In this document: positions 1 through 4,409 of the stretch, piece after piece
Layout of the letters: each line of letters begins with the position of its first letter
Position numbering within the stretch: position 1 is the first letter of the stretch
From: Escherichia coli
Lineage (GTDB): Bacteria > Pseudomonadota > Gammaproteobacteria > Enterobacterales > Enterobacteriaceae
Direction: 5' to 3' (one strand)
NCBI RefSeq assembly: GCF_003334785.1
Contig: NZ_QOWV01000047.1
DNA length: 4,409 nt
Notes under the pieces: model-generated
What the model was told of the DNA's origin: nothing
Seen by the model: the letters and a program-made list of their open reading frames with translations, nothing else
Database searches by the model: none
Made by a program: the position numbers and the translations under genes

Positions 1-60
1 TGGCCGGCAAACCGGGTACGCGATCTGTTGCCCTGGAAAGTTGATCTGAGCTCTCAGTAA
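1..60 (+). CDS. 3' terminal fragment of an upstream ORF (partial, 19 codons then TAA); identity not determinable from this fragment, possibly murI by E. coli synteny
   Basis: Frame 1 is open from position 1 and reads WPANRVRDLLPWKVDLSSQ before TAA at 58-60. Codon usage is plausible. Too short to identify the protein; murI is only suggested because it lies upstream of rrnB/murB in E. coli K-12. Confidence 0.3.
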   Translation, partial: WPANRVRDLLPWKVDLSSQ

Positions 61-92
61 ATATCAATACGGTTCTGACGAGTCGCTTACGA

Positions 93-190
93 CAAATCCG
101 CCGGGAGCGGATTTGAACGTTGCGAAGCAACGGCCCGGAGGGTGGCGGGCAGGACGCCCGCCATAAACTGCCAGGCATCAAATTAAGCAG
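93..190 (+). other. Distal rrnB terminator-region remnant with three stem-loops and a 5S rRNA 3'-end-like segment
   Basis: Matches my recollection of the sequence between rrnB T1 and T2 (GACAAATCCGCCGGGAGCGGATTTGAACGTTGCGAAGCAACGG...). Stem-loops at 94-114 (AAATCCGC/GCGGATTT), 118-132 (CGTTGC/GCAACG) and 144-162 (GGCGGGC/GCCCGCC). AACTGCCAGGCAT at 166-178 resembles the 3' end of 5S rRNA. Confidence 0.6.
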
Positions 191-225
191 AAGGCCATCC
201 TGACGGATGGCCTTTTTGCGTTTCT
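191..225 (+). terminator. rrnB T2-like rho-independent terminator
   Basis: GC-rich inverted repeat GGCCATCC (193-200) / GGATGGCC (205-212) with a 4-nt loop TGAC, followed by TTTTTGCGTTTCT (213-225). Sequence matches the rrnB T2 terminator as carried on common expression vectors. Confidence 0.8.
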
Positions 226-310
226 ACAAACTCTTCCTGTCGTCATATCTACAAGCCATCCCCCCACAGATACGGTAAACTAGCCTCGTTTTTGCATCAG
301 GAAAGCAGCT

Positions 311-1339
311 ATGAACCACTCCTTAAAACCCTGGAACACATTTGGCATTGATCATAATGCTCAGCACATTGTATGTGCCGAAGACGAACAACAATTACTC
401 AATGCCTGGCAGTATGCAACCGCAGAAGGACAACCCGTTCTTATTCTGGGTGAAGGAAGTAATGTACTTTTTCTGGAGGACTATCGCGGCACGGTGATCA
501 TCAACCGGATCAAAGGTATCGAAATTCATGATGAACCTGATGCGTGGTATTTACATGTAGGAGCCGGAGAAAACTGGCATCGTCTGGTAAAATACACTTT
601 GCAGGAAGGTATGCCTGGTCTGGAAAATCTGGCATTAATTCCTGGTTGTGTCGGCTCATCACCTATCCAGAATATTGGTGCTTATGGCGTAGAATTACAG
701 CGAGTTTGCGCTTATGTTGATTCTGTTGAACTGGCGACAGGCAAGCAAGTGCGCTTAACTGCCAAAGAGTGCCGTTTTGGCTATCGCGACAGTATTTTTA
801 AACATGAATACCAGGACCGCTTCGCTATTGTAGCCGTAGGTCTGCGTCTGCCAAAAGAGTGGCAACCTGTACTAACGTATGGTGACTTAACTCGTCTGGA
901 TCCTACAACAGTAACGCCACAGCAAGTATTTAATGCGGTGTGTCATATGCGCACCACCAAACTCCCTGATCCAAAAGTGAATGGCAATGCCGGTAGTTTC
1001 TTCAAAAACCCTGTTGTATCTGCCGAAACGGCTAAAGCATTACTGTCACAATTTCCAACAGCACCAAATTACCCCCAGGCGGATGGTTCAGTAAAACTGG
1101 CAGCAGGTTGGCTTATCGATCAGTGCCAGCTAAAAGGGATGCAAATAGGTGGGGCTGCGGTGCACCGTCAACAGGCGTTAGTTCTCATTAATGAAGACAA
1201 TGCAAAAAGCGAAGATGTTGTACAGCTGGCGCATCATGTAAGACAGAAAGTTGGTGAAAAATTTAATGTCTGGCTTGAGCCTGAAGTCCGCTTTATTGGT
1301 GCATCAGGTGAAGTGAGCGCAGTGGAGACAATTTCATGA
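311..1339 (+). CDS. murB: UDP-N-acetylenolpyruvoylglucosamine reductase (MurB), FAD-dependent, peptidoglycan precursor synthesis
   Basis: 342-aa ORF whose translation I recognise as E. coli MurB. Residues R159, S229 (codon AGT 995-997) and E325 fall at the known catalytic positions. Shine-Dalgarno-like AGGAAA at 299-304, 6 nt before ATG 311. Stop TGA 1337-1339. Confidence 0.96.
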
Positions 1340-3641: not shown

Positions 3642-3717
<76 letters not shown>

Positions 3718-3725
3718 TCAAGTCC

Positions 3726-3810
<85 letters not shown>

Positions 3811-3926
3811 ATTTCGGCCACGCGATGGCGTAGCCCGAGACGATAAGTTCGCTTACCGGCTCGAATAAAGAGAGCTTCTCTCGATATTCAGTGCAGAATG
3901 AAAATCAGGTAGCCGAGTTCCAGGAT

Positions 3927-4001
<75 letters not shown>

Positions 4002-4007
4002 AGATGT

Positions 4008-4083
4008 GCTGATATAGCTCAGTTGGTAGAGCGCACCCTTGGTAAGGGTGAGGTCGGCAGTTCGAATCTGCCTATCAGCACCA
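4008..4083 (+). tRNA. thrT: tRNA-Thr (anticodon GGU)
   Basis: 76 nt. Acceptor stem GCTGATA/TATCAGC, anticodon stem CACCC/GGGTG with loop TTGGTAA (anticodon GGT), T-loop AGTTCGAATCT, encoded CCA (4081-4083). Confidence 0.95.

Positions 4084-4161: not shown

Positions 4162-4409
<248 letters not shown>

Follow-up and report, generated by a model that had tools for sequence, protein, structure and literature searches.

The distal end of rrnB in an Escherichia coli strain: an apparent IS66-family insertion in rrB, a copied 5S rRNA end and the terminator T2

The DNA considered here, referred to as the window, is a stretch of 4,409 nt that sequence matching assigns to Escherichia coli. It carries murB (311–1339, plus strand; assigned from the list of open reading frames and from its annotation in matching E. 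coli genomes), birA (1336–2301), coaA on the minus strand, the tRNA genes thrU-tyrU-glyT-thrT (3642–4080) and the start of tufB. From position 91 to position 4409 the sequence matches many complete E. coli genomes at 100% identity; in those genomes murB is preceded by the end of the rrnB operon, made up of the 23S and 5S rRNA genes, the terminator T1, a spacer and the terminator T2; DNA identical to the rrB part of the window follows rrfB and T1 in thousands of E. coli genomes. Positions 91–225 are very probably the distal end of E. coli rrnB, comprising the 3' two-thirds of rrB and then T2, with murB lying downstream of that terminator. In a simple consensus scan, the stretch from T2 to the murB start codon (226–310) gave no sigma-70-like promoter, and a consensus scanner reported no promoter in window 1–420.

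The first 90 nt belong to a mobile element. Positions 1–60 (plus strand) hold the 3' end of tnpC, the transposase gene of an IS66-family (ISCro1-like) element, which reads towards T2 and murB and has its stop codon at 58–60. In more than 2,300 E. coli genomes, DNA annotated as 'IS66-like element ISCro1 family transposase' matches the stretch from position 1 to 94/95 at 99–100%, and in one copy of the element used for comparison (L011) the last base of the coding sequence corresponds to window 60. The right terminal inverted-repeat region follows at 61–90, and its terminus, CGCTTAC at 84–90, is the reverse complement of GTAAGCG, giving the combination of terminal repeat and TnpC by which an IS66 element is recognized. 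The L011 copy has the same end (...gacgagtcgcttac), beyond which its flank is unrelated; its left end starts with GTAACCGG, and it is flanked by an 8-bp target duplication, GACAGACG. On this sequence evidence, an ISCro1-like element of the IS66 family is inserted in rrB at 90/91. The insertion point lies between positions 7003 and 7004 of the K-12 locus (L001), some 77 nt into the RrB RNA and inside the first GGA of RrB-short; from the 8-bp duplication of L011 and the K-12 sequence, the target site is predicted to be GACAAATC, at 91–98. None of 5,426 complete E. coli genomes contained the junction between the right end of the element and rrnB, and GTDB species representatives and metagenome contigs gave no match to it either.

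What remains of the rrB body occupies 91–165 (plus strand), is 100% identical to the distal DNA of E. coli rrnB and contains three stem-loops (93–115, 118–132 and 142–164) and four GGA motifs. The intervals between T1 and T2 in rrnA, rrnB and rrnD have been described as small genes of the tRNA-linked repeat (TLR) family, named rrA, rrB and rrF (Stenum et al. 2021, PMC8144298). The RrB RNA is 173 nt long, starting 3 nt after mature 5S rRNA and ending 3 nt past an 18-bp repeat; in K-12, Hfq and CsrA are bound via GGA motifs by a shorter form of about 115 nt, and stem-loops 2–4 have been described along with the GGA motifs (PMC8144298). The existence of rrB, its TLR nature, the duplicated 5S end and the dual terminators are therefore already published, and the strain-specific IS insertion is the only new element of the present finding. 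Window 91–186 is identical to the 3' 96 nt of K-12 rrB, with which it shares the 18-bp repeat, the three stem-loops and T2; the two differ in that the window copy is split by the ISCro1-like element after about nucleotide 77 of RrB, the first of the five GGA motifs being broken. Of the 173-nt region only the 3' 96 nt (91–186) are present as a continuous stretch, the IS end abuts position 91, and the copy is parted within the window from the 5S gene, T1 and the rrn promoters; its upstream neighbour is the IS end here and rrfB-T1 in other E. coli genomes. The remaining 96 nt are predicted to fold at -47.1 kcal/mol (z = -4.72).

The remnant shows two attributes of a TLR. The family is defined by a terminal stretch of 18–19 bp that repeats the 3' end of the stable-RNA gene directly upstream; here the last 18 nt repeat the end of 5S rRNA, with K-12 rrfB as the reference, and the body is homologous to TLRs linked to other genes: it is identical at 28 of 32 positions to the TLR in the tyrT-tyrV spacer (score 40 vs 15.3 +/- 2.5; 0/1000 shuffles), and it is homologous to the rttR unit (0/1000 shuffles as good) and to a TLR body from Aestuariibacter (41 vs 14.9 +/- 2.3; 0/1000). 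The TLRs of the tyrT locus, to which the RtT RNA (RF00391; rttR) belongs, share with rrB the core GAACGTTGC..GCAACGGCCCGrAGGGTG, a second hairpin and a closing sequence copied from the 3' end of the upstream gene. They differ in that the copied end is that of tRNA-Tyr (AATCCTTCCCCCACCACCA) rather than 5S rRNA, and in that the unit lacks a T1-type terminator. The Rfam model RF00391 scored 18.6 bits on the window and 17.0 bits on K-12, below its gathering threshold of 45. It should be noted that the window match spans 57–177, across the junction between IS and rrB, and so is in part spurious; on uninterrupted K-12 DNA the alignment is limited to model positions 42–89 (17 bits). Such sub-threshold matches are a lead, not a test of membership.

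The repeat that closes rrB lies at 166–183 (plus strand). This 18-mer, AACTGCCAGGCATCAAAT, reproduces without mismatch the final 13 nt of 5S rRNA and the first 5 nt of the trailer, and K-12 contains two copies 168 bp apart (L001 6911 and 7079). The original prediction had noticed that a string at 166–196 parallels the junction of the 5S 3' end and T1; the string is present as quoted, and the junction given for comparison agrees with K-12 (L001 6911–6942). Local alignment of window 160–225 with rrfB plus T1 bears out the similarity, with 25 of 30 positions identical, the exact 18-mer included, and a score of 40 against 13.9 +/- 2.1 for dinucleotide shuffles, none of which reached 40 in 1000. 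By our own rough arithmetic, the chance expectation of an exact 18-mer shared between two stretches of about 160 nt is about 4e-7. The likeness resides in the 18-mer and in the A-rich lead-in that follows it; the signal ends at the foot of the hairpin. The duplication was also correctly placed as a known feature of rrnB, in which the 18-bp sequence is present twice with a spacing of 150 bp (PMC8144298, Fig. 1). A repeat of this kind is the hallmark of TLRs, a description credited to Rudd (1999) in PMC8144298. At 26 of 26 loci with a 5S-linked TLR, drawn from many genera, the two copies agree in the 13-nt 5S part; they also share variants, such as GACAT (CCAGACAT; K-12 rrnD and two Citrobacter loci) and GGCT (CCAGGCT; Leminorella). 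Because this core is closed elsewhere by copies of the 3' ends of tRNA-Tyr, tRNA-Arg, tRNA-Lys or tRNA-Glu, the repeat is a property of the TLR class: the 18-mer is the 3' end of rrB, not a part of T2. It has been proposed that the repeat recreates an RNase E site for formation of the RrB 3' end, which was mapped about 3 nt past the repeat, that is near window 186 (PMC8144298). The 18-mer would give the rrB transcript the same end context as 5S rRNA, which is the proposed context of RNase E cleavage.

Between the 18-mer and the T2 stem lies the A-rich lead-in TAAGCAG (184–190, plus strand). This lead-in, CAAATTAAGCAG, is that of the 5S trailers of rrnC and rrnH, and window 166–189 as a whole is identical to the 3' junction of K-12 rrfC and rrfH (AACTGCCAGGCATCAAATTAAGCAG...). 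The T2 hairpin, AAGGCCATCC/TGAC/GGATGGCCTT (191–214, plus strand), is assigned on its fold, on covariation and on its likeness to the terminator of rrnG; the U-rich tract TTTGCGTTTCT (215–225, plus strand) follows and, with 213–214, gives TTTTT right after the GC stem. The fold predicted for 191–225, as the original prediction anticipated, is a hairpin, with a stem of 10 bp (six G-C pairs), a loop of 4 nt and an energy of -17.3 kcal/mol (z = -4.15), after which comes UUUGCGUUUCU. T2 thus has the GC-rich hairpin followed by a U-run that defines an intrinsic terminator. In a consensus hairpin built from 23 T2-type sequences of several genera, compensatory changes occur in 4 of 11 pairs, and T48–T52 are invariant; some stems in the MAFFT alignment are out of register, so that several of its 'broken' pairs are artefacts. 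A simple terminator scanner applied to window 1–420 did not flag T2, probably because extension of the stem takes up the first U residues.

T2 has a near-identical counterpart in the sole terminator of rrnG. Together with the 5S-end copy, T2 is identical at 53 of 57 positions to the 3' end of rrfG and the terminator behind it, which has the same hairpin, GGCCATCC/TGAC/GGATGGCC. The settings of the two differ: the rrnG terminator follows a complete 5S gene and has the kgtP side as its downstream flank, whereas T2 in the window follows the 13-nt 5S-end copy that closes rrB and is flanked by murB. The operons rrnA, rrnB and rrnD contain a unit of 168 bp, in which T1 is followed by the TLR body and the 18-mer, and rrnG lacks it. 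When one such unit is taken out of rrnA, the remainder aligns to rrnG with only six differences over the first ~146 columns, a stretch that includes the terminator and downstream sequence common to both operons. Since rrnA minus the unit equals rrnG, the unit is a precise presence/absence difference between operons, although insertion and deletion would give the same picture in such a comparison of filled and empty sites. A second presence/absence polymorphism within the species is found in E. coli E69 (L060, CP089930.1), in which a 139-bp class II TLR, a form without T1, lies between 5S and tRNA-Asp; removal of the 139 bp gives a locus that matches K-12 rrnC (L007) at 119 of 120 positions. 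In E. coli 06-00048, the rrnG operon beside kgtP (L132 395–620) has 5S, T1, a TLR body, the 18-mer and a second terminator that combines a T1-type stem with a tail of the T2/rrnG type; rrnG of K-12 has no TLR at all. The arrangement in 06-00048 suggests conversion or recombination between rrn operon ends.

A scan for the TLR core GCAACGGCCCGRAGGGTG, with one genome per species, returned at least 120 loci. Our arithmetic gives about 17 chance matches to the core in the 298 Gb searched, which fits the scattered, GC-rich core matches outside the Enterobacterales that have no repeat. Among the matches listed from the Enterobacterales, what comes after the core repeats the 3' end of the upstream gene, be it 5S rRNA, tRNA-Tyr, tRNA-Arg or tRNA-Lys. 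The 5S-linked members are of two classes. Class I (period 167–169 bp) consists of T1, body, copy and a second terminator at the end of the operon, and class II (period 136–140 bp) has no T1 and lies between 5S and a distal tRNA-Thr or tRNA-Asp. The bodies of class II (L060, L014, L050, L077 and others) contain GGCAGTTCACTACTC, an inverted copy, matching at 14 of 15 positions, of the 5S 3' region GAGTAGGGAACTGCC (0/1000 shuffles), which in the RNA is predicted to pair with the terminal copy of the 5S end; class I units, the one in the window included, have no such inverted copy. Tests for an extra partial gene copy ahead of the core gave marginal values only (30/1000 for tRNA-Tyr; 34/1000 for a 5S 9-mer).

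Units of the same kind were also met elsewhere. In Aestuariibacter sp. AA17 (L105 744–1330), tRNA-Glu is followed by three tandem TLR units of 171–172 bp, each with the tRNA 3' end, a T1-like terminator and a body containing the enterobacterial core. Units resembling TLRs and bearing the hallmark repeat occur in a Thiotrichales MAG, after tRNA-Tyr (L083), and in a Chromatiales MAG (L122). Because of the units in Aestuariibacter, Thiotrichales and Chromatiales, the family reaches beyond the Enterobacterales range given in PMC8144298. In two Pectobacterium loci (L049 and L100) the TLR core (...CCGCCATAAAAAAACGTCGGGAACGTT...) lies within short tandem repeats of 73–74 bp, which look like a miniature form of the array.

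The original prediction was that T2 is a diverged copy of the 5S end together with T1. The first half of this stands, in that the 5S end is duplicated; descent of the T2 hairpin from T1 does not find the same backing. Both are intrinsic terminators, each preceded by the 18-mer and by an A-rich lead-in that agrees at 8 of 12 nt between the two, and they differ in that T1 has a much longer stem (-32.6 vs -17.3 kcal/mol) of other sequence. When the terminator parts are compared alone (window 184–230 vs T1), the score is 15 against 11.8 +/- 2.1, and 98 of 1000 shuffles do as well; in the window's lineage a repeat test of T1 against T2 was equalled by 30 of 500 shuffles, so the likeness is not significant. 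T1 of E. coli, on the other hand, resembles the terminator of the Aestuariibacter tRNA-Glu TLR (36 vs 12.1 +/- 2.2; 0/1000), with compensatory changes in the stem, whereas T2 shows no similarity to that terminator (954/1000 shuffles as good). T1 has thus been kept with the TLR unit as far as the Alteromonadales and T2 has not; since T1 is homologous to the Aestuariibacter terminator and T2 is not, T1 can be regarded, by sequence homology, as a component of the TLR unit. Between loci, mean scores are 50.2 for T1 with T1, 36.0 for T2 with T2 and 16.9 for T1 with T2, and judged by these scores the two types are distinct across most Enterobacteriaceae. We therefore hold with considerable confidence that E. 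coli T2 represents the type of terminator that otherwise stands alone after 5S, as in rrnG, and would not be a decayed T1.

One alternative, which we consider unlikely, is close to the original prediction: a tandem duplication by which the end of rrnB would comprise about 1.3 copies of a repeat whose unit starts with the 5S 3' end and its terminator, with T2 as a diverged second T1, and from which ends of the rrnG type would have arisen by later deletion between 18-mers. It would account for the alignment of 25 in 30 positions that continues through the lead-in, and it is in keeping with likeness between T1 and T2 inside certain loci, which is significant in K-12 rrnD (3/500) and in the Enterobacter/Citrobacter-like loci L018, L021 and L052 (1–5/500), and strongly so in Rahnella (L030; score 33, 0/500) and Rouxiella (L080; 38, 0/500). 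Because of the similarity in rrnD, Rahnella and Rouxiella, it is not proven that T2 is unrelated to T1, although in the two Yersiniaceae, Rahnella and Rouxiella, local conversion may be responsible. The family also offers precedents: in Aestuariibacter the tRNA 3' end, terminator and body are repeated in true tandem, as three units; the rrnG operon of 06-00048 has a T1-like second terminator; and the TLRs of K-12 tyrT form a tandem array. The tyrT TLRs were first described by Egan and Landy (1978), as cited in PMC8144298. Clearly, tandem duplication or conversion of a gene end with its terminator does occur among TLRs. Set against these points are the lack of significant likeness between the hairpins in the window's own lineage, the lack of any similarity of T2 to the T1-type terminator conserved across orders, the low between-locus score of T1 with T2, and the presence of the T2 type alone, directly after 5S, in rrnG. 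The assignment of T2 to the stand-alone rrnG type remains the one we prefer.

A further part of the original prediction was that T2 had been retained without its parent copy of 5S and T1. This reading of the locus has to be corrected: that neither 5S nor T1 is seen follows from the insertion in rrB and from the position of the first base of the window, which lies within the IS element, and both may be present on the far side of that element. As far as the sequence allows, a simple insertion into an otherwise intact operon is probable. In that case ...GAGTAGGACAAATC (...CTCCTGAGTAGGACAAATC) is predicted to lie directly before the left end of the element, GTAACCGG..., with rrfB-T1 upstream; this predicted left junction had no match in metagenome contigs. 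IS elements mediate adjacent deletions and inversions, and it is conceivable, if rather improbable, that rrnB, including 5S and T1, was lost by such an event; the window contains only one end of the element, and neither junction was present in the records searched. The break, however, falls exactly at the IS terminus and the DNA downstream is 100% ordinary E. coli, just as in a simple insertion, and no positive evidence of rearrangement was found.

The idea that the interval between T1 and T2 is a decayed second 5S gene, with the 18-mer as its 3' end and T2 as its terminator, can appeal to the two 5S genes of rrnD (rrfD and rrfF), to a 7-mer, GAGTAGG, common to the interval and the 5S 3' region, and to class II TLRs with GAGAGTAGG and an inverted copy of that region, yet it is hardly credible and effectively refuted by shuffle tests in which the rrB body resembled the 5S body no better than chance (716/1000 and 734/1000 shuffles scored at least as high), by the lack of any RF00001 match at E <= 10 in the window or in the K-12 T1–T2 interval (436-nt search), by the homology of the interval to tRNA-linked TLRs and by the presence of the same interval after the second 5S gene of rrnD.

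A more general, and distinctly speculative, proposal is that TLRs, rrB included, are footprints of a cassette inserted or duplicated precisely at the 3' ends of stable-RNA genes. Such a cassette would bring a T1-type terminator and the conserved core and would regenerate the last 13–20 nt of the gene as a direct repeat, by analogy with tRNA-targeting integrative elements, which duplicate an att core. On this proposal T2 would be the resident 5S terminator, pushed downstream, T1 would have come with the cassette, and the filled and empty sites among rrn operons and strains would reflect cassette gain and loss. The origin of TLRs is touched by three of the present observations, namely the joint occurrence of T1 and the TLR core out to the Alteromonadales, the exact filled and empty sites, and the perfectly co-varying copies of the 5S end.

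For the strain itself, the consequences concern both rrB and murB. The expectation that murB is still shielded from upstream read-through is a plausible one, in that T2 is intact and termination has been reported as 87% at T1 and 100% at T2 (Orosz 1991, as cited in PMC8144298). T2 now stands between murB and an IS transposase gene reading in the same direction, and would stop transcription coming from the element. The rrB remnant is separated from the rrn promoters, and the interrupted operon probably makes no normal RrB; an RrB-like fragment driven by the IS is conceivable. In terms of annotation, the repeat is better labelled as the 3' end of rrB (TLR) than as part of T2, and T2 corresponds to the stand-alone terminator of rrnG. 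It is also worth recalling that the rrnB T1–T2 cassette, among the most used terminators in cloning vectors, carries a gene for an Hfq- and CsrA-binding sRNA (PMC8144298). If the reading given here is true, the source strain is a natural IS knockout of rrB, in which the intact 3' part, with its four GGA motifs, the 18-mer and T2, could be expressed by read-through from the element and so be uncoupled from rRNA synthesis.
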